Below, in pieces: positions 34,234 through 51,627 of a stretch of DNA of 64,000 bases. Position 1 is the stretch's first letter, and the number at the start of each line of letters is the position of its first letter. The notes beneath the pieces were generated by a model. It saw nothing but the letters and a program-made list of their open reading frames with translations, did no database searches and was not told where the DNA came from. The position numbers and the translations under genes were made by a program. The DNA is from Polyangiales bacterium (GTDB lineage: Bacteria > Myxococcota_A > Polyangia > Polyangiales > Ga0077539). The DNA is taken from NCBI GenBank assembly GCA_046351515.1, contig JAXLYJ010000005.1:370892-434891 (forward strand), written 5' to 3'.

Positions 34234-36269
34234 CTACGCGGCGCGCTCGACGAGTCCGATGCGCGCGAGCAGCGCGTCTACGGTGGCGTCGCGGCCCATG
34301 AACTCGCGAAACAGCACGGCGGGGTCTTCGCTGTCGCCTCGAGAGAGCACGCTCTTGCGAAACGCCTCGCCGGTGGCGCGGTTGAAGATGCCCTCGCGCT
34401 CGAAGCGGGTAAACGCGTCGGCGTCGAGGACCTCGGCCCACTTGTACGAGTAGTAGCCGGCCGCGTACCCGACCGGGTCGGCGAACAAGTGGTTGAAGCT
34501 CGCGATCATCGCGTAGTCGTCGGGCAGCGGCGTGGCGGCGAACTGGCCCATCACTTCGCGCGCGAAGCGCACGACGTCGCCGTGCTTGGCGGGGTCGTAC
34601 GTGCGGTGCAGCTCGAGGTCCACCGTCGCGAACGAGAGCTGACGCATCTGCATCGTCGCTTCGCGAAACGTCCGCGCGCGCTTCATCTTGGCGAACAGCT
34701 CGTCGGGCAGGCGCTCGCCTGTGGCGTGATGCTTGGCGAGCAGCTCGAGGGCCTCGCGCTGCCAGCACCAGTTTTCATGGATCTGCGAGGGAAGCTCGAC
34801 GAAGTCCCACGCGACGCGGGTGCCGACCATTCCTCGGATGTCCACCGACGAGAGCGCGTGATGAAGGAGGTGTCCGAACTCGTGAAAGAGCGTCTCGACC
34901 TCGCGAAACGTGAGCAGCGCGGGGCGCTCGGCGGACGCGGGCGTGACGTTGGCGCAGAAGAGCCCCACCTGCGGCCCCTCGCTCGGCAGCGACGAGAGGA
35001 TCCCGTTCATCCACGCGCCGTCGCGCTTGTTCTCGCGCGGGTACAGGTCGATCGCGAAGCGGCAGAGCTCGCGCTCGCCGTCGAAGATCGAGAACGCGCG
35101 CACGCTCTCGTGATAGCGCGCGGCGTCTTCGCGCTCGCGCACCGAGAGGCCGTAGACGCGCTCGATCACCGAGAACATTCCGCGGACGACGGCGTTGGCC
35201 TCGAAGTACGGCCGCAGCATCTCTTCGTCGAAGGCGTACCGCGCGAGCCGCATCTTCTCGGAGTAGTACGAGACGTCCCACGGCTCGAGCTCGGGCGCCT
35301 TCGGCCCTTCGAGCTCGCGGCGAAACGCGAGCAGCTCGGCCTTCTCTCGCTCGAAGAACGGGACGGTCCTCCGCCGCAAATCATCGACGAATCGCGAGGC
35401 GGTCTCTCCGGTCTTCGCCATGCGATCGGCGAGGACGTAGTCCGAGAAGTCTTTGAAGCCCAAGAGCTGCGCTTGCTCTTTGCGAAGCGCGAGGATCTCT
35501 CCGAGCAGCGGTCGATTGTCGAACGGCTCGCGCGTCGCGCTGGTGTTGTACGCGTGCCACAGCGTCTTTCGCAGCGCGGCGTCGTTGGCGTACGTGAGCA
35601 CCGCGAGGTAGCTCGGCGACTGCAGGGTGAATCGAAAGCCCGTGAGTCCCTTGCTCTTCGCGCTCTCTTTGGCCATCGCGAGCGCCGAGGGCGGCAGGCC
35701 CGCGACCTTCGACTCGTCGCTGATCACGATGTCGAACGCGGCGTGCGAGTCCAGGACGTTCTGCGAGAACTTCGTGGTGATCTCGCTCAGGCGAGCGGCG
35801 ATCGCGGCGAGGCGCTCTTTGCCTTCGGGGGCGAGCTCGGCGCCCTGTCGACGAAAGCCGTCGAGCGTCTTGTCGAGAAAGCGCTTCTGCGGCCCGGTGA
35901 GCGCGCGCGCTTCGTCGGTCTTCGCGTAGCTCGAGACGGCCTGCCACAGCGCGGGGTCCAAGGGAATCTTCGAGTAGAACTCGCTCACCTTCGGCTGAAC
36001 GTCGTTGTACGCGTCGCGCAGCGCCGGCTCGTTCATCACGGCTTCGAGGTGTGAGACCACCGCCATCGCCCACTCGAGCTCGCGGGTGCTCTCGTCGAGC
36101 GCGCGCAGCGTGTTGTCGAAGGACCGCGGCCCGGTGAGCGCACAAATCGCCGCGATGCGCTGCTTCGAACGCGCGATCAACGCGTCGATGGCGGGACGAA
36201 CATGCTCAGCGCGCGGACGCGCTCGTACGGGGGATCGATGCTCAGTTCGAGCAGAGGGTTGTCGCTCAT
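34234..36269 (-). CDS. M3-family oligopeptidase A / peptidyl-dipeptidase (PrlC/Dcp-like); N-terminal 20 codons lie in a different frame (apparent 1-nt indel near 36205)
   Basis: HEFGHLLHH zinc motif; end-to-end similarity to E. coli OpdA. MSDNPLLELSIDPPYERVRA (ATG at 36267-36269) aligns to E. coli MTNPLLTPFELPPFSKIRPEH but is frame-shifted relative to the body ...EHVRPAIDALI. Confidence 0.85.
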
Positions 36270-36324
36270 GGAGGGGCGGAAGGATACCCTCTCGGCTGCC
36301 GCCCGCGAGGGCGACGGAGGCAGT

Positions 36325-36673
36325 CATGGCAAAGCTCACCCTCGACACCATCAAACGACTCGCACCGGACTCCAAGAGCGTCTCGAACGCCAAGAGCGTC
36401 GCCGACCCGCGCAAGTGGAGCGCCCTCGGCATCGACGAGGGCGGAGTGCTCTGGGGCGAGTACAACGGCAGCGAGCGCTACTCGCTCTACGCGTCGACGA
36501 GCGCGCCGTCGTCGGACTCGGGCTGCTCGTGTCCGTCGCGCAAACGCCCGTGCAAACACGTCCTGGGGCTGCTCATGCTCGCCGCGGGCGGCCACCCGAT
36601 CGAGACCAAAGCGATGCCCGATTACATTCGTGACGAGGCCAACGAGGCCTACTACGAATCGACCTTCGAATAG
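36325..36673 (+). CDS. SWIM zinc-finger protein (small, stand-alone)
   Basis: CSCPSRKRPCKHVLGLL = CxC...CxH SWIM signature; 116 aa; start ATG at 36325. Confidence 0.65.
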
Positions 36674-36685
36674 TCCCTGCGCACC

Positions 36686-37627
36686 ATGGCGACGAAGAAA
36701 AAGACCGAGCCGCTCAGCGCTGCGACGACGCACTCCGACGATCTGTCGCTCTCGGACAAAGAGCTCACGCAGCGAGTGTTCGAGCCCGATCGAACGACGC
36801 TCGAAGCCACGCGCGACGCGGTGCGAGACGTCGATGATCCCGCAGAGGCGTGGGAGCTGTTGGCTGGGCGAGGGATCGTTCCGAGCGAGTGGCTCGGGGA
36901 TGGTGATCGCGTGTTTGCCGAGGACGAGCGGCCGCCGGCGCTCGCCGAGCGAGGCTTCAACGACCAGCCGACGCGCGCGGCGATCCTGCGCTACCTCGAG
37001 GTCGGTCCGCGACTGTGCGACGCTCCTCCGACGGTGATCGCAGCGTGCTCGCTCGCGTGCGACATCCCCGGCGTCACCACGGCCGAGCGCGTGGCGCGAG
37101 AGGCTGTTCGACGCCTCGCTGCGTGGGGCGCGCCGCAGCCGTCGCGGGTGTGTTGGCGCATCGTCGACCCCGAGGACTGGGAGACGCAGCCCGGTGATTT
37201 TCGGCACATGCCCGCGGCGATGGCCGTCGGTGACGCGTACGTGCCGACGCCCACGACCGAGCGAACGATCATGCGCGCGAGGCTCTACGACTTCGGGACG
37301 CCCGCCTGGCGCGCGGCGTTCACGTGGGAGTGCGCCGCGCTCTGGCGCCTCGTGTCCAAAGGCAACCGCGTGATCGCCGCGAGCACGTCGCTCGCGCCCG
37401 ACTCGATCGCCGCGAGCGGATACCCGCCGATCCCGTCGGAGCTGAGAGCGAAGCGCTTCGCTGACGTTCCCAACCCGTTCGAGCCGCTGCTCTCGCTGTG
37501 GGCCGCGGGCTACGCGCTCGACGCGATCACCGAGCACACGATCGTGCTCGCGGCGCCGCGCGTGAAAGAGAAGCGAGCGGCGATCACCACCCCGAAGAAG
37601 CGTGCGTCCAAACGCAGCGCCGAGTGA
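36686..37627 (+). CDS. Hypothetical protein, co-directional partner of the SWIM protein
   Basis: 313 aa with no recognisable motif. Starts 12 nt after the SWIM gene stop. Convergent with the C1-TerB gene (stop codons abut at 37627/37628). Confidence 0.5.
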   Translation: MATKKKTEPLSAATTHSDDLSLSDKELTQRVFEPDRTTLEATRDAVRDVDDPAEAWELLAGRGIVPSEWLGDGDRVFAEDERPPALAERGFNDQPTRAAILRYLEVGPRLCDAPPTVIAACSLACDIPGVTTAERVAREAVRRLAAWGAPQPSRVCWRIVDPEDWETQPGDFRHMPAAMAVGDAYVPTPTTERTIMRARLYDFGTPAWRAAFTWECAALWRLVSKGNRVIAASTSLAPDSIAASGYPPIPSELRAKRFADVPNPFEPLLSLWAAGYALDAITEHTIVLAAPRVKEKRAAITTPKKRASKRSAE

Positions 37628-38887
37628 TCACTCTTCGATCTGCCACTCTTCGACGAGCTGCGCGAGAAGTCCCTCTTCGTCTTCGTTGAGCTCGTCCGAG
37701 CCGGCGATCTCCTGCGCCTTGCTGATGATGTTCGCGAGCATTCCCGCGGACAAGTGCTCGCCGAAGATCTGCACGGTCTCGTTGAGCAGCTCTTCGTTCT
37801 CGACGTGGCGCGCGGCGAAGCGGAGCACCTTTTGCGGGTCGAGCTCGGAGCCGATTCGCTCGAAGGTGTCCTGCAAGTGCGCGGCGAGCGTCTGCAGCTC
37901 TTCGTCGCTCACGTCTCCGTCAGCGTTGGCCACCACCAAGAAGAGCTGCGCCAGGCGACTCTCGAAAGGAACCTCTCCGCACGCGTCGTGAAACGCCTGA
38001 AACTCGTCCTCGCTCATGTTCGCGAACTCGTTGTCGATCTCGGGCAAGACCGACTCGTCGTCCTCGGACCAGCCCTCATCCGCGGCGACCGCGTCCACGC
38101 GGCGGATGATCCACGAGTCGCCGTTGTTGAAGCGCTCGTTCACGAGATAGTCGTACGGGATGTAGCAGTAGCCGTCGTCGCCCCAGTCGGTTCCCCACGA
38201 GTTGCGGACGATGAAGACTCGGTCTTGATCGCTGTATCCGACGGCGAGCATCGCGTGTCCGCCGTGCGATTCGCGCGACGATTCGCGGGGCGAAGGCATG
38301 GGAACGAGCCCCGGCTTTCGGTGCTTGTCGAACGAGCGAAACAGCGAGATCCCGAAGATGATCGGGTAGCCCTCGGCGAGCGCGCTCTTCCACGCCTCGA
38401 GGCGCGTGGGCACCACGGCGGTGTCCTCGATGAGAAACTCCGAGGCCTCTTGGTACGCCTCGTCGCTCGGCTGCTCATTGACGATCTCTGCGTCGAACGG
38501 CCACGTCGCTTCGGAGCACGCGCCGTACTGCTTCAAGCTCTCGATGAGCGAGCCGATCACCGAGCCTTCGTCCTCGTTCTCGATCCCGTCGACCGCGCGG
38601 CCGTTGTAGTAGATGAACAGTCGGCTGACGTCGTAGGCCTCTTCGCCGAGGTGGCGTTTGACCAGGTATTCGTACGCTCCGGCGACGGCGTTGGCTGCGC
38701 ACGAGTTGGTGTCTTCTTGGTTCTCGACCTCCGTGAGAAACGGTCGGAGGTCGACGCGGCGAGGCAGCTTCGAGCTCGCGGCGGAGGCGCTCGGCGCCCA
38801 CGTTCGCGTCCCTGGTTTCGGAGCGGCGTACCGATAGCCCGAGACCTGTCGGCTGCTTCCATCGGCGCGGTTGATGATGAAGCCCAT
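37628..38887 (-). CDS. Cytoplasmic papain-like (C1) cysteine peptidase fused to a C-terminal TerB-like domain
   Basis: Q...NSCAANAVAGAYEY (catalytic Cys), GGHAMLAVGY (His) and NSWGTDWGDDGY (Asn/Trp) C1 motifs. No signal peptide. C-terminal 130 aa LFLVVANADGDVSDEELQTLAAH... resembles the TerB/DjlA-N fold. Confidence 0.7.
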   Translation of the reverse strand: MGFIINRADGSSRQVSGYRYAAPKPGTRTWAPSASAASSKLPRRVDLRPFLTEVENQEDTNSCAANAVAGAYEYLVKRHLGEEAYDVSRLFIYYNGRAVDGIENEDEGSVIGSLIESLKQYGACSEATWPFDAEIVNEQPSDEAYQEASEFLIEDTAVVPTRLEAWKSALAEGYPIIFGISLFRSFDKHRKPGLVPMPSPRESSRESHGGHAMLAVGYSDQDRVFIVRNSWGTDWGDDGYCYIPYDYLVNERFNNGDSWIIRRVDAVAADEGWSEDDESVLPEIDNEFANMSEDEFQAFHDACGEVPFESRLAQLFLVVANADGDVSDEELQTLAAHLQDTFERIGSELDPQKVLRFAARHVENEELLNETVQIFGEHLSAGMLANIISKAQEIAGSDELNEDEEGLLAQLVEEWQIEE

Positions 38888-39007: not shown

Positions 39008-40042
39008 TTACTCCGCGATCACGACGGGGACGGGGTTCGCTTGCACGTTCACGTTCACATGCACCTGCAGCGGCTGCACGGGTTGCACGGGGAGCACGGG
39101 CACCACGACTTGCTGCGGGGTCGGATACACCACGGGCTGCGAGTACGGGTTCACTCGCACGGGGCGGAGCACGGGCTCGGGGTACACCACCAACGGTTGC
39201 ACGTACGGCTGCACGTAGGGCTGCGGATAGACCACCGGCTGCACATACGGCTGCGGATAGACCACGGGCTGCACGATGGGTTGAACCACGGGCTGCACAT
39301 ATGGCTGCGCGATCGGCTCGGCGGGGCCGTCCCATCCGAGGTCGTGCGGCGCTTCGGCGAGGTGCGAGCCCAGGCGATTGACCGCGACCGCGAGCGAGCC
39401 GTCGAAGTTTGCCTCGAGCTCTTGGATCACTTGCACGAAGTGAGACTGCAGCCGAGCGCGCTCTTGCTGCTGCGCCTGCCACTCATTCTGCACGGGAATT
39501 CCCTGGGGAATGTACTCATACGGCTCTTGGATGCGGATGATCTCTTCGCGCGTGAGGCCCGACGAGAGTGACCAGTCGACGAGCGGTCCTGCGCCCACGT
39601 CGGCGAAGCGCACGAAATTGTTGGCGCGAGACACTCGGTCCACCAGTACGCGATGGCCCGAGTGCGCGAGGAGATTCGCCACGGCGCACAGCCTTCCGTT
39701 CGCGTCGACGAACACGTTGAGCCGCCCCGGTCGCACGCGATTCTCGGGGAAGACTCCCGCTTGCATGTACGCGCGCAGCCACCCGATGTTTTGCCTTCGC
39801 TGCGTCGCGAGGTAGTTGCGCCACGCTTGAACGTTGGGCGCGACCGTCACGACGGGCCGCCACTGTCGAGGCGCCACGCGCGCCATGGTGTCCATGGTCT
39901 CGTCGGGGATCGGCGCGCGCATCATCACGGGCGCTCCGGCGACGACAGTTTGCAGCGTCTGTGCGTCGGCGTGGCGAGCGCCTGCAGAGATCGCGACGGC
40001 GACGAGACCAACGAGCACTCGACGAACGGACCAACGCTTCAT
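39008..40042 (-). CDS. Secreted protein with C-terminal QPYVQPVV(Y)P tandem peptide repeats
   Basis: Signal peptide MKRWSVRRVLVGLVAVAISAGARHADA. C-terminal 110 aa made of 8-10 copies of a P/V/Q/Y-rich 8-mer. Confidence 0.55.
   Translation of the reverse strand: MKRWSVRRVLVGLVAVAISAGARHADAQTLQTVVAGAPVMMRAPIPDETMDTMARVAPRQWRPVVTVAPNVQAWRNYLATQRRQNIGWLRAYMQAGVFPENRVRPGRLNVFVDANGRLCAVANLLAHSGHRVLVDRVSRANNFVRFADVGAGPLVDWSLSSGLTREEIIRIQEPYEYIPQGIPVQNEWQAQQQERARLQSHFVQVIQELEANFDGSLAVAVNRLGSHLAEAPHDLGWDGPAEPIAQPYVQPVVQPIVQPVVYPQPYVQPVVYPQPYVQPYVQPLVVYPEPVLRPVRVNPYSQPVVYPTPQQVVVPVLPVQPVQPLQVHVNVNVQANPVPVVIAE
39100..39310. repeat. Coding tandem repeat (about 24-nt unit, GGCTGCACRTAYGGCTGCGGATAGACCAC-like) inside the 39008..40042 gene
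   Basis: Multiple imperfect copies are visible directly in the sequence and encode the QPYVQPVV repeats. Confidence 0.6.
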
Positions 40043-40190: not shown

Positions 40191-40838
40191 TCACGAAGCG
40201 CGGGCAGACCACGCGATGAGCACGGTGCTCGCGTAGTACAGCGGCAGCCCCCAGAGCCGATTGACGAACGCGGGCTTCACGAAGCGATCGCGCGCCACGG
40301 AGAGGTCCGAGAGGTAGAAGAGCACCGCGCCCGCGGGCACGAGCCATCGGGCGCCGTGTCCGAAAGCCCCGAACGCGAGCGCGACCATCGCCGAGATCGC
40401 CGCGCAGTACGCGAGCACGGGGAGCTTCATCTTCTTCTCGACGTGCGGGAGCAGCCAATAGATCACTCGCGCGCCGATCGCCCCGAGCACGAAGAGCGCC
40501 GCGGGCAACCAGCCGCGCTGCAGACCGAGCGTGGTGAACGCCACCGCGAGCGCGACGTGTCCGACGAGAAAGCTCACGAGCCCGCCCAAGAACGCGGGCG
40601 TTGCGCGAGAGAGCAGGAGCACGTCGCCGATCGCGCAGAAGGCGAGCGCGCCGAGGATGAGCTTGGCGTAGAGCGTCGCGCCTGCGCTCACCGTCCAAGC
40701 GATGCCCAGAAACGAGGCGCTCGCGAGCACCTTGGTGATGGCCGCGAGGATCTTCTGTCCCTGGTGCTCGCTCGCGATGTGCAGCGCTACGAAGAGCGCA
40801 CACAAAATCGAGGCGGCCCACGGAAGGATCGCGCTCAC
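40191..40838 (-). CDS. YhhN-family (lysoplasmalogenase-like) integral membrane protein
   Basis: 215 aa with 7-8 TM helices; conserved HxxxE-like start (ALHIASEHQG) and overall YhhN topology. Confidence 0.65.
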   Translation of the reverse strand: MSAILPWAASILCALFVALHIASEHQGQKILAAITKVLASASFLGIAWTVSAGATLYAKLILGALAFCAIGDVLLLSRATPAFLGGLVSFLVGHVALAVAFTTLGLQRGWLPAALFVLGAIGARVIYWLLPHVEKKMKLPVLAYCAAISAMVALAFGAFGHGARWLVPAGAVLFYLSDLSVARDRFVKPAFVNRLWGLPLYYASTVLIAWSARAS

Positions 40839-41146
40839 GTCTTCACCGCCGGGCGAGCGGGGGCGTTCTCTTGCCGCTCTTTCTCGTGGTCGTGGTCGTG
40901 GTCGTGGTCGTGATCGTGATCGTGCGCTTTGCCTGCGCGCTTGAGCTGCACTTCGACGTGCTCGCCGAGCGCTCCGAGCGGAACACCGAGGATCTCTTCG
41001 GCCATCTCCTTGAGGTCCTGCCGGTGCTCGTGCGGCATCTCGTCCTCGGGCACCTCGACGTCGACCGTGAGCGAGGTGCGGCCCGTTTGCCGGTCGAACT
41101 TGTAGCGAAGCGTCACGCGTCGCTCGTCTGAACGTGCTTGTTTCAT
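40835..41146 (-). CDS. Small hypothetical protein ending in an (HD)7 His-Asp repeat
   Basis: 103 aa ...KRAGKAHDHDHDHDHDHDHEKERQ. The repeat is encoded by a GTGGTC/GTGATC hexanucleotide microsatellite at 40878-40920. ATGA overlap with the YhhN gene. Confidence 0.5.
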   Translation of the reverse strand: MKQARSDERRVTLRYKFDRQTGRTSLTVDVEVPEDEMPHEHRQDLKEMAEEILGVPLGALGEHVEVQLKRAGKAHDHDHDHDHDHDHEKERQENAPARPAVKT

Positions 41147-41156
41147 CGCATCGACC

Positions 41157-41780
41157 TCACGCCTTCACGACCAGGGTCACTTCGTAGTTTCCGCCCGGAT
41201 CGCCCTGTTCTTTCACCCACTCGACGCTGCCGAGCTGCTTGGCCCGCTGCTCGAGCGCCTCGCGATACACCTTGTTGAGGGCGGTCTGGACCTGCTCGCG
41301 CAAGGACGGTTCGGCGCCGAGCAGCCTCGCCACGGCGGCGCGAGAGAGCGCCTCTTCTTGCGCCTTCTTCGCGCGGTCCATTTGATCGTCGAGGCCCTTG
41401 TCGAGCTGTTGGTCGATCTCTTCGTCCTTGGTGTCCTTGTCGAAGCCGCGCCGCTCGGTGACGGTGATCGTCTTCTTCTCGACCGCGCGAAGCACCACGC
41501 GCGAGGCGTCGGGCTCGAGCTGAGCGACGACGCCTTCGATGTTCTTCGTGAGCGATCCGTCCTCTTGTTTGCTCCAGCCGTCCGCTTCGAGAACGCGCCG
41601 CAAGATCTCGCGCATCTGCTCTTCAGGAAGCACCGGCAAGAGCTTCACGTCGACGTGGATCTCGTCCTGAGCGCTCACGTCTTGCGAGCGATCCTTGCTT
41701 CGGACGATGCGGCCGAGACCTTCCCAGCCGAGTTCGAGGTTCATTCCGCAGGGCATGTGGGGGTATTTCATCGGTACCAC
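41157..41780 (-). CDS. Hypothetical acidic protein (207 aa), upstream partner of the HD-repeat protein
   Basis: Charged and coiled-coil-like; no known motif. 10-nt spacing to the downstream gene suggests an operon. Confidence 0.5.
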   Translation of the reverse strand: MVPMKYPHMPCGMNLELGWEGLGRIVRSKDRSQDVSAQDEIHVDVKLLPVLPEEQMREILRRVLEADGWSKQEDGSLTKNIEGVVAQLEPDASRVVLRAVEKKTITVTERRGFDKDTKDEEIDQQLDKGLDDQMDRAKKAQEEALSRAAVARLLGAEPSLREQVQTALNKVYREALEQRAKQLGSVEWVKEQGDPGGNYEVTLVVKA

Positions 41781-46886: not shown

Positions 46887-47572
46887 CGAACACCCGGTCC
46901 GAAGTTGACGTTGAAGCCCAGCATCGCGCCGATCACGCCGATGCCGCCTGGGCTCAGCCAATCGACGGTCACCAGTCCTGCGTTTTGGCTGAAGGCGTAC
47001 CAGCGCATCTCGAGGTCGATCGAGAAGCGCGCGTTCGGAGAAAACTGCGCGAGGCCAAAGAGCGTCGGAGTCCAGAAGGGGCGCGCGTCGAGCTCGCGGT
47101 CGCTCGAGCCGATGCGCAGCATGTTGTGCACGCCGCCGCCGAGCAGAAGCCAGCGCGTCGGTCGCCCCGCGCCGCCGACCCACGCGTCGGCGAAGACGAC
47201 CGCGTCGCGACGATTGCCCATCCCCTGCAGCGAGCCGCCGATCGCGAGCGCGTGGCGCACGTTGGGGATCGGGTGCCACACCGCGCCGCCCGTCATGCTC
47301 AAGATCGCCGTCGAGCCGCCGCCGCCGCTGAACGCCATGGCCAGCGGCTGAACGCTCGCGTGCAGATCGATGTCGTCTTCGATTCCGTACGCGACGTCGA
47401 CGGCGACGATCGGCGCAGGGATCGGCAGCGGACGACGCAGAATGGGGCCGCCGAGCGAAGCGTTGACTCGAAGATTGTTCTTTCCGACCGGTTGCAGCAG
47501 GTGCGACGTCGCGCAGCCCGTAGGAGCCGCGAGGAGCGTCACGACCGCTGCCCGAAGCAGCCAGTATCGCAC
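46883..47572 (-). CDS. Hypothetical lipoprotein / possible small outer-membrane beta-barrel
   Basis: GTG start at 47570-47572; ...LLAAPTGC lipobox; alternating hydrophobic beta-strand pattern with C-terminal ...NVNFGPGVR. ATGA overlap with the downstream hydrolase. Confidence 0.45.
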   Translation of the reverse strand: MRYWLLRAAVVTLLAAPTGCATSHLLQPVGKNNLRVNASLGGPILRRPLPIPAPIVAVDVAYGIEDDIDLHASVQPLAMAFSGGGGSTAILSMTGGAVWHPIPNVRHALAIGGSLQGMGNRRDAVVFADAWVGGAGRPTRWLLLGGGVHNMLRIGSSDRELDARPFWTPTLFGLAQFSPNARFSIDLEMRWYAFSQNAGLVTVDWLSPGGIGVIGAMLGFNVNFGPGVR

Positions 47573-47793
47573 GGGCGCGACGCTACCACGGTGCTCGCGA
47601 GACCGACTGTCCTGTGTGCGCTCTCGCGCGCACGCGAGGGCCTCGCTCGGCGCTCGCAACGAATTTTGCTTGCGTGCTTCGCTGGACGAGCACCGTCCGT
47701 TGTGTGCTAGAAATGTGCTGCCGTCAGAGACGAAAAGGGGGTTGGCCATCGGGCTTTCGGCCGTTGCCGAGCCCGACGCTCAGCCCCCCACTG

Positions 47794-50700
47794 ATGGAGC
47801 GACGCAGCGTCTCTCTAGACCCAGCGTGGTCGGTCACGTTTTCCCCGCTCAGAGTGTGCGGTGACCGATGGGATCCAGAGCCCTACTGCGTCGTGGCGTT
47901 GTGTCCCGTCGACGCATGGAGTGCAGTGTTGACTACGGAAGCTGCGGTGGATGTGCAGAGCCCTGTCATTCAGGCGGTGGCTCGACTCAGTGATCGCGCG
48001 TTGGCCCGCCTGGTGGGCGCGAACGCGTACCTTCGGGGCCGGGTGTACGCGAGGCAAGCTTGCGTTCACGCGCTCGCGGTCGCGGGCAGTGAAGCCTCCG
48101 GTCGCGTTCATGGCCGCGCGAGCGACCCTTACGACGTGAAGGTCAACCTCTCGGACGAGGGCGGCTTGACCAGCCAGTGCTCGTGTCCCGCGTGGCGCGG
48201 ACCGGACCGGCACTGCAAGCACGTCGCTGCGTTGCTCGTGGCGTTGCGCGACAAAGTCCGCCCGCCGCGATCACAGCAGCAAGGGGAGGGTGGGGAGAGA
48301 GACTCGAGCGCGCCGCCCGCGCCCAACGCGACGCCCAACGCAGCGAGCAACAACAACGCTGGCAGCGCGAACAACGCTCTCAGGCCGCCCAAGCCCAAGG
48401 ACGGCGGTCGCGAGCGTGAGCGCGAGCGAGAGCGAGACCGAGATCGCCACGATCGCCGCGACGCGAAGAACCCGCGACGGCGCGATGACACGGGCTCTGC
48501 GCGCGAAGTGGTCGTGATGGATCGATCGGGCCCTCGCGTGGTGTCCGCCGGGGAATGTCCACGGTGCAGTCGGTCTCGGCGTCCGCGAGCGCGAGCAACG
48601 AGCAGCCCAAGGGGTTTGCGGCGTGGGTTCCGTCGAACGAGCCGAGAAAGGCGCCGGAGATCGAGTACCGCGTGCACGTGCGGTCCAACTCGCTCGCGAT
48701 CACGCCGTACCTCGCTGAGTCGCGCACGGCCGTCGCGCCGTCGGACGCGCTCGATCAGCTCGGCGCGCTCCCGAGCGTGCATCGTCCGATCCTTCGCTTG
48801 CTCGCGCGGTTGCACCCCAAGGGTGCCCGAGGAGCGCAGGTCGAGGCGCGCAACGAAGACGCTGCTGAGCTGGTCGCGCGGCTGCGCGGGCGGCGCGTGC
48901 TGGTCGAGCCGATGCTCATGGAGCTCCGGTACCTCGACGAGCCGCTCGTCCCGAAGATCGAGCTCGAGATGGTCCCGCCGTCGCACGTGCGCGTGCGTGT
49001 TGTGTTCGAGCGCAAGTCCGGCGATGCGCGGCGATTCAACCTCAATCAGGGCCTGTGGCTCGAAGGCGATCCGGGCTGGCACCTGGACCCGATTCAAGGC
49101 GTCGCGCGGCCGCTCGCGGATCACGTCACGTCCACGTGGCTCGAGCGTCTGCTCAAGACGCCGGCGGTCACTCACCCCACGAGCGACGTCGCGCGGTTGC
49201 TGAGCGAACACCTGCCCAAGGTCTCGCTCGCGCTCAACGCTCCGCTGCCGGACATTCGCGCGATCGTCGACGAGATCGACGTCGCGCCGAAGTTCGTGAT
49301 GCGCGCGGCGGGTGACCTCACGCGCGTGGTCGGAACGCTCGATGTGAAGTACGGCGAGCACGAGTTTCAGGTGCCGCCGGTCGAGCTTCCTCCGCCGCTC
49401 GTCATCTTGGAGAGCGCGGGCGTGCGGCCCAAGTGCCTGCGTCGAGACGTGGGCGCTGAGCGCCTCGCGGTGAACATGCTGCTCGATGGCGGGCTCGAAG
49501 TGACCGATGATTTCCGTGCGTTTCAAGCGACGGAAGACCGCGCGGTGAAGTTCTGGAGCGAGTGCGTCCCGTCGCTGCCGCGCGAGTGGGAGAAGTACGT
49601 CCCCGAGCACATGGCGAACGTGAAGGTTCGCAGCGCTCCCCTGACGCCGCGCGCGCGTCTCGTCCGGTGTGGATTGGCTCTCGGTCGACGTCGAGTTCGG
49701 CTCGGAGGGCAGCAAGGCGGCGGAAGAAGACCTGCGCCGCGCCCTCGAAATGGGCCACAAGCTCGTCCGCCTCGAAGACGGAACGTACGCGCGCATCGAA
49801 GGCCTCCAAGTCGCCGAGGTGCTCTCTCGCCTGCAAGAGATCTATCAAAACGGCAAGGGGCAGCTCCCGCTCTCGCAAGCAGGGCGCGTGCAGGACCTGC
49901 TCTCGCAGCTCGGGCAGCGCGCGGACGTCGGCAAGAGCACGAAGGACTTCTTCGCGGCGCTCGGCGAGCACAAGGTCGAGTCCATCGATCCGCCGAAGGA
50001 CCTCGACGCGACGATGCGCCCCTACCAGCAAGAGGGCTTCTCGTGGCTCGCGTACCTGTACCGCACAGGGACTGGCGGAATCCTCGCGGACGACATGGGT
50101 CTCGGAAAGACCCTGCAAGCCATCGCGCTGCTCTTGTGGGTCAAGCGCTTGAGCGAGCCGTTCGTCGAGGCCGACGAAGCGCCGCGCACCAAGGCGAAGA
50201 AGGGCGCGAAGAAGGCCGCCGCTGCGAAGGAAGCGTCCGTCGACGACGACGAAGAAGAGAGCGCGGCGACGAAGAAGGGCGCGAAGAAGGGCGCGAAGAA
50301 GGCTGCGAAGAAGGGCGAAGAGTCCAGCGCTGGCCCGGTGATGGGACCGATGGCGAAGCCGCTCGAGCAGGGCGGTCCGCTGGCGTTGGTCGTGGCGCCG
50401 ACGTCGGTGGTTCCGAACTGGGTGCGCGAGGTGCAGAAGTTTGCGCCCGCGCTGCGAGCGATCGCGTGGACGGGCTCGGATCGCGCTCAGTACAAGAGCG
50501 AGATCGAGCGCGCGGACGTGGTCGTGACGTCCTACGCGCTGCTGCGTCGCGACGAGGAGTTTCTCTCGTCGATCGACTGGGGCTACGTGATCCTCGACGA
50601 AGCGCAGTCGATCAAGAACCCGACCTCGGCCACCGCGCGCGCCGCGAAGAACCTCAAGGGCAAGCGTCGCCTGGCCCTCACGGGAACGCCGATCGAGAAC

Positions 50701-51627
50701 CGCCTGAGCGAGATCTGGTCGATCTTCGACTTCGTCTCTCCGGGCCTTCTGCCGGCGCTCGCGCAGTTCGAAGAGCGCTACGCCAGGCCCATCGATCGCG
50801 GCGACGAGGACGCGGCGCGCAGGCTCCGCTCGACGATTCACCCGTTCGTCCTGCGTCGCACGAAGAACGAAGTGGCCCAGGATCTCCCTGAGAAGATCGT
50901 CACCGAGCGGCTGTGCGAAATGCCGCCAGAGCAGCTCGCTGTGTACAAGACCGTGCTCAAGAGCGTGCGCGACACGATCATGGGCGAGGTCGAAGCGAAC
51001 GGACTGGCGCGCTCGCAGCTGCAGATCCTGGCGGGCCTCACGCGACTGCGTCAGGCCGCGTGCGACCCGCGGTTGCTCGGGATCACAGGCCCGTTCAGCG
51101 ACGAGACCTCGGGCAAGCTGTTGGCGTTGCGCGAGCTGATCAGCGAGGCGCAGCAAGGCGGGCACCGGACGCTGGTGTTCTCGCAGTTCGTCTCGATGCT
51201 GCAGCTCATCAAGACCGCGCTCGATCAGGACGGCGTCACGTACGAGTACATCGACGGCGACACGAAGGACCGTCAGTCGCGCGTCGATCGCTTCAACAAG
51301 GACGAGAAGGTCTCCGTCTTCTTGATCTCGCTGAAGGCCGGCGGAACGGGCTTGAACCTCACCGGCGCCGACACCGTCGTGCACTTCGATCCCTGGTGGA
51401 ACCCCGCGGTCGAAGATCAAGCGACGGATCGCGCGCACCGCATCGGGCAGACCAAGGTCGTCACGGCGTATCGCTTCGTCGCCCGCGGGACGATCGAAGA
51501 GAAGATCCTCGAGCTCAGCGCCAAGAAGCGCGAGCTGGTCGAGAACGTGCTCGGACAAGAGCAAGACGAGAAGGTCTCGGGCGTGCTCACGCGCGCCGAG
51601 CTCGATCGACTGTTCAGCGACGAGTGA
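47794..51627 (+). CDS. SWIM zinc finger / SNF2-family helicase, about 1,260 aa, currently split over three frames (47794-~48500, 48555-~49650, 49669-51627)
   Basis: N-terminal CSCPAWRGPDRHCKHVAALLV SWIM finger. C-terminal SNF2 motifs LADDMGLGKT, DEAQSIKN, LALTGTPIEN, helicase-C (LVFSQF...DRFNKDEKVSVFLISLKAGGTGLNLTGADTVVHFDPWWNPAVEDQATDRAHRIGQ). Lys/Ala-rich insert at 50150-50340. Two apparent indels join the three pieces. Confidence 0.7.

Follow-up and report, generated by a model that had tools for sequence, protein, structure and literature searches.

Does a locus in which a stand-alone SWIM zinc-finger gene, a 313-aa open reading frame (ORF) and a papain-like peptidase gene lie side by side encode one functional module, and what might the SWIM protein and its partner do? 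The stretch of Polyangiales DNA analysed here, hereafter the window, spans 64 kb. The genes in question form two independent units, the peptidase adjoining the SWIM-313 pair only through lineage synteny. We put at about one in two the probability of a fuller reading, in which SWIM and the 313-aa protein are carrier and binder in a module detached from the pathway encoded by STM4015-STM4011 clusters, and the peptidase is an ordinary C1-terB neighbour. The features of the locus are the following:

34234..36269, minus strand: M3 oligopeptidase, divergent from the SWIM gene (synteny; start codon located)
36326..36673, plus strand: stand-alone SWIM-module protein, 115 aa, soluble (Pfam SWIM match, GGAGG, homologues, dN/dS)
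36524..36559, plus strand: predicted SWIM zinc-ligand motif C67-S-C69-PSRKRP-C76-K-H78 (homologue alignment)
36650..36670, plus strand: conserved C-terminal tail YYESTFE-COOH of the SWIM protein, aromatic at -6 and Glu at -1 (tail pattern counts)
36674..36685, no strand: 12-nt SWIM-313 spacer, no Shine-Dalgarno sequence (sequence read)
36686..37627, plus strand: 313-aa protein, member of a large unnamed family; probably a binding partner without enzymatic activity
37628..38887, minus strand: 419-aa predicted cytoplasmic xylellain-type C1 peptidase-TerB fusion, independent neighbour of the pair
38096..38767, minus strand: papain-like catalytic domain, residues ~41-264, with Q57, C63, H211 and N229 (Pfam, 3OIS)
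37649..37954, minus strand: TerB-like C-terminal domain, residues 312-413 (Pfam TerB, E 1.1e-4)

The SWIM gene and the 313-aa ORF

A first-pass annotation of this DNA had described a SWIM gene of 116 aa starting at 36325. The finger stands, but the start and length do not: the gene begins at 36326, encodes 115 aa and is preceded by a GGAGG Shine-Dalgarno sequence 5 nt upstream of its start codon. The product combines the CxCxnCxH motif with a score above the gathering cutoff of Pfam SWIM (PF04434; 23.9 bits against 19.6) and is a predicted SWIM zinc finger. Its zinc ligands are read from the motif, in which C67, C69, C76 and H78 are invariant across an alignment of 16 SWIM homologues, and the gene shows a dN/dS of 0.16-0.27. 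The 313-aa ORF does lie 12 nt past the SWIM stop (36686-37627), as had been described, and a GC3 of 0.85 together with a dN/dS of 0.29-0.43 against its orthologues identifies it as a real gene. Since the 12-nt spacer lacks a Shine-Dalgarno sequence, translation of the two ORFs may be coupled. In the window they share a reading frame, separated by TAG and four codons; a fusion produced by stop-codon read-through is nevertheless rejected, because this frame relation is not kept in the orthologous loci, where the spacing ranges from -41 to +44 nt.

The view that the two genes are a genuine pair is borne out by the SWIM gene lying directly upstream of a close 313 homologue in nine of nine loci (53-99% identity). 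SWIM and 313 constitute a bicistronic operon that is under purifying selection and confined to a Polyangiales-like clade of soil myxobacteria, the close 313 clade having 14 members. Their co-occurrence holds throughout these close loci but breaks down among distant relatives, where 313 relatives (at most 35% identity) and SWIM relatives (at most 50%) are found without each other.

The wider 313 family comprises ~800 clusters at 50% identity, for which there is no Pfam or NCBIfam model, and the confident predicted structure of the 313-aa protein has no relative among solved structures; a sizeable protein family is thereby brought to light. Catalytic residues are not conserved in the family, and no nucleic-acid-binding or nuclease signature was seen. 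Because its sole invariant polar residue is one Glu, the 313-aa protein is probably a soluble binding protein rather than an enzyme, and it would most likely act as a binding partner or scaffold of the SWIM protein. Some small SWIM genes elsewhere have unrelated neighbours, either a protein of 187/205 aa or one with HEAT repeats, which tells against the fuller reading. Profile comparisons (hhalign/HMM) detected no similarity between the 313 family and any of these partners, and were likewise negative for the C-terminal part of large SWIM proteins, for DUF6745 and for DUF5691 (hhalign probability 0.2%).

The convergent C1-TerB peptidase

Beyond the pair lies the 419-aa peptidase gene, whose stop codon meets that of the 313-aa ORF as TGATCA, the stop-to-stop abutment noted in the first-pass annotation. 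The protein matches Pfam Peptidase_C1 (E 1.7e-15), and xylellain (3OIS) aligns to its residues 13-264 with an E value of 1e-40. The alignment places Q57, C63, H211 and N229 on the catalytic residues of 3OIS, so the complete catalytic set claimed for the protein is present and assigns it to the xylellain type of papain family C1A. It also takes in the pre-catalytic segment (residues 13-40). In xylellain the N-terminal segment reportedly restrains the active site, and by analogy that of the 419-aa peptidase probably does the same. The similarity thus covers the catalytic domain, the segment before it and all catalytic residues, whereas xylellain has no TerB domain. For the TerB-like C-terminal domain there is a match to Pfam TerB (PF05099) just under the gathering cutoff (22.9 bits against 24.4, E 1.1e-4), and many full-length homologues (55-82% identity) carry precomputed PF05099 annotation. 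The lack of a signal peptide also agrees with our analysis, the first 60 aa containing no hydrophobic N-terminal segment (maximal Kyte-Doolittle value, 15-residue window, of -0.15).

The supposed rarity of the fusion does not survive. At least 120 homologue clusters share at least 55% identity with the peptidase, nearly all covering 98-100% of it, and the homologues listed carry the NCBI name 'C1 family peptidase'. Moreover, the architecture has already been named, as 'short bacterial C1-terB peptidases' (Kordis & Turk 2023, PMC10380794), a group that the 419-aa protein resembles in joining C1 and TerB domains in one chain, in its short length and in the absence of a signal peptide. Judged by its sequence, the protein is an ordinary member of these xylellain-type 'C1-terB' cytoplasmic cysteine peptidases. 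No biochemical study of any member of the group was found in the searched literature.

Could the three genes nevertheless form one module, in which the SWIM and 313-aa proteins serve the C1-TerB protease by recognising or regulating its substrates? Besides the abutment in the window, gaps of 10-34 nt in four related loci (L001, L009, L010 and L011), within a block that stays syntenic at 53-71% identity of the 313 protein, speak for such a link. However, synteny extends equally to the entire block around these genes (FHA-TGase, M3, p344, YhhN, fvmX), which leaves little information in the adjacency. Two rearranged loci of one related lineage, L002 and L003, keep M3-SWIM-307 and the p344 gene that follows but have no peptidase, which largely refutes the single module. 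Orthologues of the peptidase (~58-60% identity) occur in Vitiosangium and Leptospiraceae in unrelated contexts with no SWIM or 313 neighbours, and the 14 members of the 313 clade are far outnumbered by the peptidase family. A shared function of all three genes, implied in the first-pass annotation, is therefore very improbable, and no meaning could be demonstrated for their convergent arrangement.

DNA transactions, conflict systems and the M3 peptidase

With the peptidase set apart, the question becomes what the pair does. The SWIM module itself is not confined to this clade: 34 metagenome loci with its CPSRKRPCKH signature were retrieved, and it occurs in MoxR/VWA operons, in DUF4132/WGR proteins, in uracil-DNA glycosylase fusions and as stand-alone genes, showing that one specific SWIM module is mobile between very different settings. 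The 115-aa protein is a stand-alone copy of this mobile module, bearing a tail of the form ...Y-x4-E-COOH. In SWIM-DUF5691-AAA(MoxR)-DUF5682-VWA operons (Rhizobium sp. K102, Deinococcus taeanensis), which we take to be of the E. coli yehLMPQ type, the same module forms the N-terminal ~100 aa of SWIM proteins of ~460 aa (40-46% identity to the window protein, CPSRKRPCKH included). The window protein, in contrast, adds to the module no more than an acidic tail, and its gene neighbours are the M3, 313-aa and C1-TerB genes; MoxR, VWA, DUF5682 and DUF5691 are absent near the pair, which places it outside this operon type.

Other settings of the module bring DNA to mind. It is fused to family-1 uracil-DNA glycosylase in four loci (L025, L029, L030 and L034), and lies within a WGR+LRR protein (L037) and within the DUF4132 proteins of L032 and L040. 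The DUF4132 protein of L032 also has a sub-threshold zf-PARP match. In Deinococcus, DUF4132 and WGR genes are DdrO-regulated, and the WGR protein MolR of E. coli is described as LexA-regulated (PMC8533742). The window further holds recX and a SWIM-SNF2 helicase locus, the second SWIM domain reported for the window being found in ORF 47524-49203, which adjoins the SNF2 ORF 49669-51627. The pair might then be a DNA-damage or DNA-transaction module, with SWIM as its DNA-binding component and the 313-aa protein as an accessory. Against this, a DNA-repair gene is adjacent in none of the nine loci, no conserved SOS-type operator is evident in the aligned upstream regions of the SWIM gene (eight loci), and the 313 family is devoid of nucleic-acid-related signatures. 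Stand-alone SWIM genes, furthermore, associate with ATP-grasp and radical-SAM genes and not with repair genes. We consider a role in DNA transactions unlikely.

An immunity-like or conflict-system role of the 313-aa protein, which would make the pair a toxin/antitoxin-like or anti-phage element, is given little credence. PADLOC models gave no match for the SWIM, 313-aa or 419-aa proteins and PHROGs none for the first two, plasmid and phage collections contained no match to the 313-aa protein, and phage collections none to the protein P0152. Neither a PADLOC match nor a toxin domain places the locus among known anti-phage defence or toxin-immunity systems.

Another candidate partner is the divergently encoded zinc oligopeptidase M3, the SWIM tail then being a peptide that it would cleave. 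M3 is the only other gene adjoining SWIM and 313 in every related locus, the rearranged L002 and L003 and the short contig L012 included, across a divergent intergenic region of only ~56 nt. The arrangement recalls FxSxx-COOH systems (PMC7159879), in which a small protein with a conserved C-terminal peptide accompanies a zincin peptidase. However, the strong conservation of M3 (61-90% identity) is what is expected of a housekeeping OpdA-type enzyme, no M3 neighbour is seen in any of the 30-odd loci that carry the SWIM module beyond this clade, and the window copy carries a 5' frame break (near 36208). Processing of the tail by M3 thus appears improbable.

Relatives of the pair in STM4015-STM4011 clusters

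The reading that we favour, a detached module of the STM pathway, draws on the distant relatives of both proteins. STM4015-STM4011 clusters (NCBIfam models NF038076, NF038074, NF038075, NF006067 and NF038073) encode an LRR protein, an ATP-grasp enzyme, a sulfatase-like hydrolase and two radical-SAM enzymes. On the 313 side, the distant relatives P0014, P0151 and P0195 lie directly past STM4011, and the full operon 4015-4014-4013-4012-4011-P0195 is present in L056. As for SWIM, L007 and L008 have a small SWIM gene that converges on STM4011, and in L031, L042 and L043 such genes stand directly upstream of STM4014 (scoring 287-352 bits where the cutoff is 175), in the slot that STM4015 holds in canonical operons. 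Because distant relatives of the two proteins sit, independently of each other, in or beside STM clusters, where SWIM can replace STM4015, we infer that the pair would derive from this pathway as a tail-bearing adaptor and its binding partner. These associations rest on ~2-3 lineages for each of the two sides, and the operon that they link to both proteins has been conserved in bacteria ranging from Salmonella to Deinococcus, Streptomyces and Bacteroides.

The pair and the operon differ in that neither the SWIM nor the 313-aa protein is homologous to any of the five STM proteins. The window holds none of the five genes and so does not itself belong to the system, and in close relatives a search up to 6 kb from the pair showed no STM4011-4014 gene. 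In none of the loci examined do STM genes accompany both SWIM and a 313-like gene, and six canonical annotated STM operons include neither of the two.

A further likeness is an acidic, Glu-ending tail common to SWIM and STM4015, which suggests what the ATP-grasp and radical-SAM enzymes of the operon might act on. The pattern [RKY][YFW]x4E$ is found at 19 of 28 SWIM-module C-termini and in 7 of 9 STM4015 proteins, as against 0 of 292 other compared proteins. The register is not uniform, the aromatic residue being at -8 in STM4015 of Salmonella and Methylobacterium, and Tyr replaces the -7 Arg in SWIM tails of the window clade. The tail may serve the SWIM protein as a functional handle. A more specific and rather doubtful proposal is that small SWIM and STM4015 LRR proteins are interchangeable tail carriers, that the ATP-grasp ligase STM4014 and the radical-SAM enzymes STM4011/4012 use this tail as their substrate, and that the 313 family provides a dedicated carrier- or tail-binding accessory. 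The outcome would be modification of a protein tail, or a small-molecule pathway templated by the carrier, as with RimK/S6 or PQQ. If true, this would provide STM4011-4015, a widespread operon that also occurs in Salmonella and is as yet unstudied, with its first testable prediction of a substrate.

Known systems provide analogies. RimK/S6 and other ATP-grasp C-terminal ligases share the encoding of a protein with a Glu-ending tail beside an ATP-grasp enzyme, although STM4014 is not RimK, which it resembles weakly (E 5e-6; score 26 bits, cutoff 143). FxSxx-COOH systems, again by analogy only, share radical-SAM and zincin peptidase neighbours. Unlike both, the window pair has no ATP-grasp or radical-SAM neighbour. 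Finally, pairs of a small 98-109-aa protein and a DUF6745 protein flank STM operons; with no sequence similarity to SWIM or the 313 family, they repeat both the pattern of ~100 aa plus ~330 aa and the association with STM4015-4011, in Deinococcus, Streptomyces and Methylobacterium.

The SWIM zinc-finger gene and its downstream partner

The high-GC window (about 67% GC), whose close matches are Polyangiales-like Myxococcota MAGs, carries a trio of genes with the features described in the first-pass annotation, as judged from ORF reading and Pfam scores:

36326–36673, plus strand: SWIM protein, 115 aa; Pfam SWIM score above cutoff
36686–37627, plus strand: 313-aa ORF, starting 12 nt past the SWIM ORF
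37628–38887, minus strand: 419-aa ORF; Peptidase_C1 (E 1.7e-15) and TerB (22.9 bits, just below cutoff)

The SWIM gene itself stands, but its start and size had each been off by one (36326 and 115 aa are correct). GGAGG lies 5 nt 5′ of its ORF, all four zinc ligands are invariant across 16 homologues, and the 313-aa and 419-aa ORFs meet stop-to-stop. Hydrophobic segments are present in none of the three proteins. Immediately before the SWIM Shine-Dalgarno motif, CGCCC-GCGA-GGGCG (within 36290–36325) forms a short GC hairpin; the matching positions in two relatives (L009 and L010) are also able to pair, with different sequences.

The pairing of SWIM with the 313-aa gene is borne out by all nine loci with a close homologue of the 313-aa protein, where SWIM lies directly upstream on the same strand, either overlapping the 313 gene by up to 41 nt or separated from it by at most 44 nt. 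Compared with four orthologues, dN/dS is 0.16–0.27 for SWIM and 0.29–0.43 for the 313-aa gene. The two genes are a co-transcribed pair, and are probably translationally coupled. Their close families are small (16 SWIM and 14 313-aa proteins), and more distant relatives (≤50% identity for SWIM, ≤35% for 313) are found without each other; the pairing is clade-restricted. The pair is a new, narrowly distributed variant in which a known SWIM module is joined to an undescribed family; its SWIM protein is a zinc-finger module that ends in a conserved tail, and its 313-aa protein has a novel fold and is probably non-catalytic.

The 313-aa protein has no match in Pfam, NCBIfam, PADLOC or PHROGs. Its profile, run against 1.84 billion representatives, recovers 794 clusters at E≤1e-3, of which 331 also pass E≤1e-10, with members mostly of 230–300 aa. 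None of 20 sampled members has a Pfam or NCBIfam match over the 313-like region, and named members (for example from Pendulispora albinea) are all ‘hypothetical'. Fusions include T6SS VipA, TIGR02996 with LRR, ankyrin, PQQ/WD40 propellers, PP2C and MshEN, and about one-sixth of members carry an inserted CxxCxGxG zinc knuckle. Only P34, E134, W157 and G275 are invariant in 36 diverse members, a degree of conservation that argues against the family being enzymes. One family member with the zinc knuckle (P0152; L064, 7001–7801) has as neighbours genes for an integrase, a DNA methylase, DUF5131 and peptidoglycan-binding proteins as well as numerous small ORFs, in a region that looks like a prophage.

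The convergent C1-TerB peptidase

The nearest solved structure to the 419-aa peptidase is 3OIS (E 1e-40, residues 13–264), deposited as ‘Cysteine protease' and which we take to be xylellain. The alignment takes in the segment preceding the catalytic domain and pairs Q57, C63, H211 and N229 with their counterparts in 3OIS, upholding the catalytic Cys, His and Asn assigned in the first-pass annotation. A search of the protein collection gave 2,298 matches; the best 120, drawn from Polyangium, Vitiosangium, Minicystis, Byssovorax and Leptospiraceae, share 55–100% identity, and nearly all cover 98–100% of the protein. Many of these 120 have a precomputed PF05099 match, and homologues are named ‘C1 family peptidase' (NCBI) or ‘C1A family cysteine protease/tellurite resistance protein B-like' (JGI). 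[quoted passage not shown]

The first reading had implied a three-gene module of SWIM, the 313-aa gene and the peptidase gene. In L001/L013, L009, L010 and L011 the whole block is syntenic (FHA-transglutaminase, M3 oligopeptidase, SWIM, 313, C1-TerB, the secreted repeat protein p344, YhhN, fvmX3-analog and fvmX5), as it is from M3 to p344 in the shorter contig L020, and being neighbours in a conserved stretch of this kind is little guide to function. L002/L003, whose 307-aa homologue shares 53% identity with the 313-aa protein, keep M3, SWIM, the 307-aa gene and p344 and lack the peptidase; peptidase orthologues in Vitiosangium and two Leptospiraceae genomes have unrelated surroundings that include neither a SWIM nor a 313-like gene. 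We therefore conclude that the convergent layout reflects lineage synteny rather than a system.

A less likely alternative is that the pair cooperates with the M3 zincin, which always adjoins it, by analogy with FxSxx-COOH systems. At the 5′ end of the M3 gene (36200–36270, minus strand), the conserved start MSDNPLL (ATG at 36267–36269) does not share the frame of the long M3 ORF, and a GC run near 36208–36211 is 2 nt longer in the window than in L009, L010, L011 and L020. A real frameshift or an assembly error would account for this, as would translation from an alternative upstream start (MTASV, about 36327) that overlaps the SWIM ATG.

On the minus strand, p344 (39008–40042; 344 aa) has a signal-peptide-like N terminus, C-terminal PVVYPQPYVQ-type repeats and no Pfam match, and is kept beside the locus in all relatives, L002 included. 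The fvmX3-analog and fvmX5 genes (40835–41780, minus strand), with Pfam ‘FtsH ternary system' domains, have YhhN, p344 and the peptidase gene downstream of them in the same orientation; no FtsH, MoxR or vWA partner was seen near them.

SWIM modules in other settings

A metagenome scan for the CPSRKRPCKH signature gave 34 loci. The module, about 100 aa long, occurs in five settings:

Setting 1: stand-alone proteins, 102–124 aa
Setting 2: N terminus of 430–490-aa proteins
Setting 3: fused to family-1 uracil-DNA glycosylase (UDG)
Setting 4: C terminus of DUF4132 proteins, one also with a sub-threshold zf-PARP match
Setting 5: C terminus of a WGR+LRR protein

The 430–490-aa proteins lead a SWIM-DUF5691-AAA-DUF5682-VWA operon in annotated Rhizobium and Deinococcus records. 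The fusions with UDG, WGR and DUF4132, together with PMC8533742, lend support to a less likely alternative, that the pair is a DNA-damage module; another alternative is an immunity-like element. In L025, L029, L030 and L034 the module is N-terminal to the glycosylase, which has a GQDPYH motif (Pfam UDG match confirmed for L025), an architecture that may merit separate study.

Stand-alone SWIM genes have various upstream partners: five loci have a HEAT-repeat protein and two a 187/205-aa protein, neither of them related to the 313 family. The conserved HEAT-repeat protein (377–578 aa; L021, L024, L031, L042 and L043) has a distinctive C-terminal domain; in L042/L043 its gene follows one encoding a secreted Cu-monooxygenase-like protein, and L042 also has a gene for a HemN/HutW-like radical-SAM enzyme upstream of it.

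A second SWIM domain in the window is real and lies next to the SNF2 helicase: on the plus strand (47524–51627), a SWIM ORF (47524–49203) and an SNF2/Helicase_C ORF (49669–51627) are separate, about 460 nt apart. Relatives have a single SNF2 protein of ~1250 aa (L002); gene splitting or a frameshift may account for the two ORFs.

STM4015–STM4011 operons and the C-terminal tail

Three distant 313 relatives (P0014, P0151 and P0195) have an N-terminal Cys/His extension in common, and each lies directly 3′ of an STM4011 radical-SAM gene, whose stop overlaps the next start in L004 and L014. L056 holds a complete operon (two STM4015-like LRR genes, STM4014, STM4013, STM4012, STM4011 and P0195). Independently, a small SWIM gene is convergent with STM4011 in L007/L008, where all four STM models score far above cutoffs, and is directly upstream of STM4014, which encodes an ATP-grasp protein weakly similar to RimK, in L031, L042 and L043. 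This slot belongs to the LRR protein STM4015 in the canonical operons of Salmonella, Methylobacterium, Paenibacillus, Deinococcus, Streptomyces and Bacteroides. At the C terminus of STM4015 proteins, an acidic run precedes a final stretch such as WRYVALGE, RYVAVAE or RYPDVGE; the last residues of tail-bearing small SWIM proteins are RYQSTWE, RYYSSWE or RFYNSWE, or, within the window clade, YYESTFE or YYESTWE. A match to [RKY][YFW]x4E-COOH occurs in 7 of 9 STM4015 proteins, 19 of 28 SWIM-module C termini and 0 of 292 other proteins compared, and no STM gene adjoins SWIM at L005 or L023, where the tail is missing.

These convergent links and the common tail, newly inferred here, suggest a connection that deserves testing. 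Caveats are substantial. Neither the window nor the surroundings of the pair in close relatives contain STM genes, no locus among those examined combines SWIM, 313-like and STM genes, and neither family is found near the six canonical operons; the lineages behind the association are few on both the SWIM and the 313 side. The SWIM and 313-aa proteins may bind each other, and the SWIM tail would be a functional handle for STM4014-type enzymes that recognise or modify it, their genes lying elsewhere in the genome or having been present ancestrally, with the 313-family protein as a putative carrier- or tail-binding accessory.

In three species, STM4015–STM4011 operons are also flanked by a small 98–109-aa protein and a DUF6745 protein (~330–360 aa), which share no sequence similarity with SWIM+313 but resemble it in size pattern:

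L058, 9890–11187: 98–109-aa + DUF6745 pair, Deinococcus taeanensis
L059, 2424–4046: 98–109-aa + DUF6745 pair, Streptomyces cadmiisoli
L061, 2316–3641: 98–109-aa + DUF6745 pair, Methylobacterium currus
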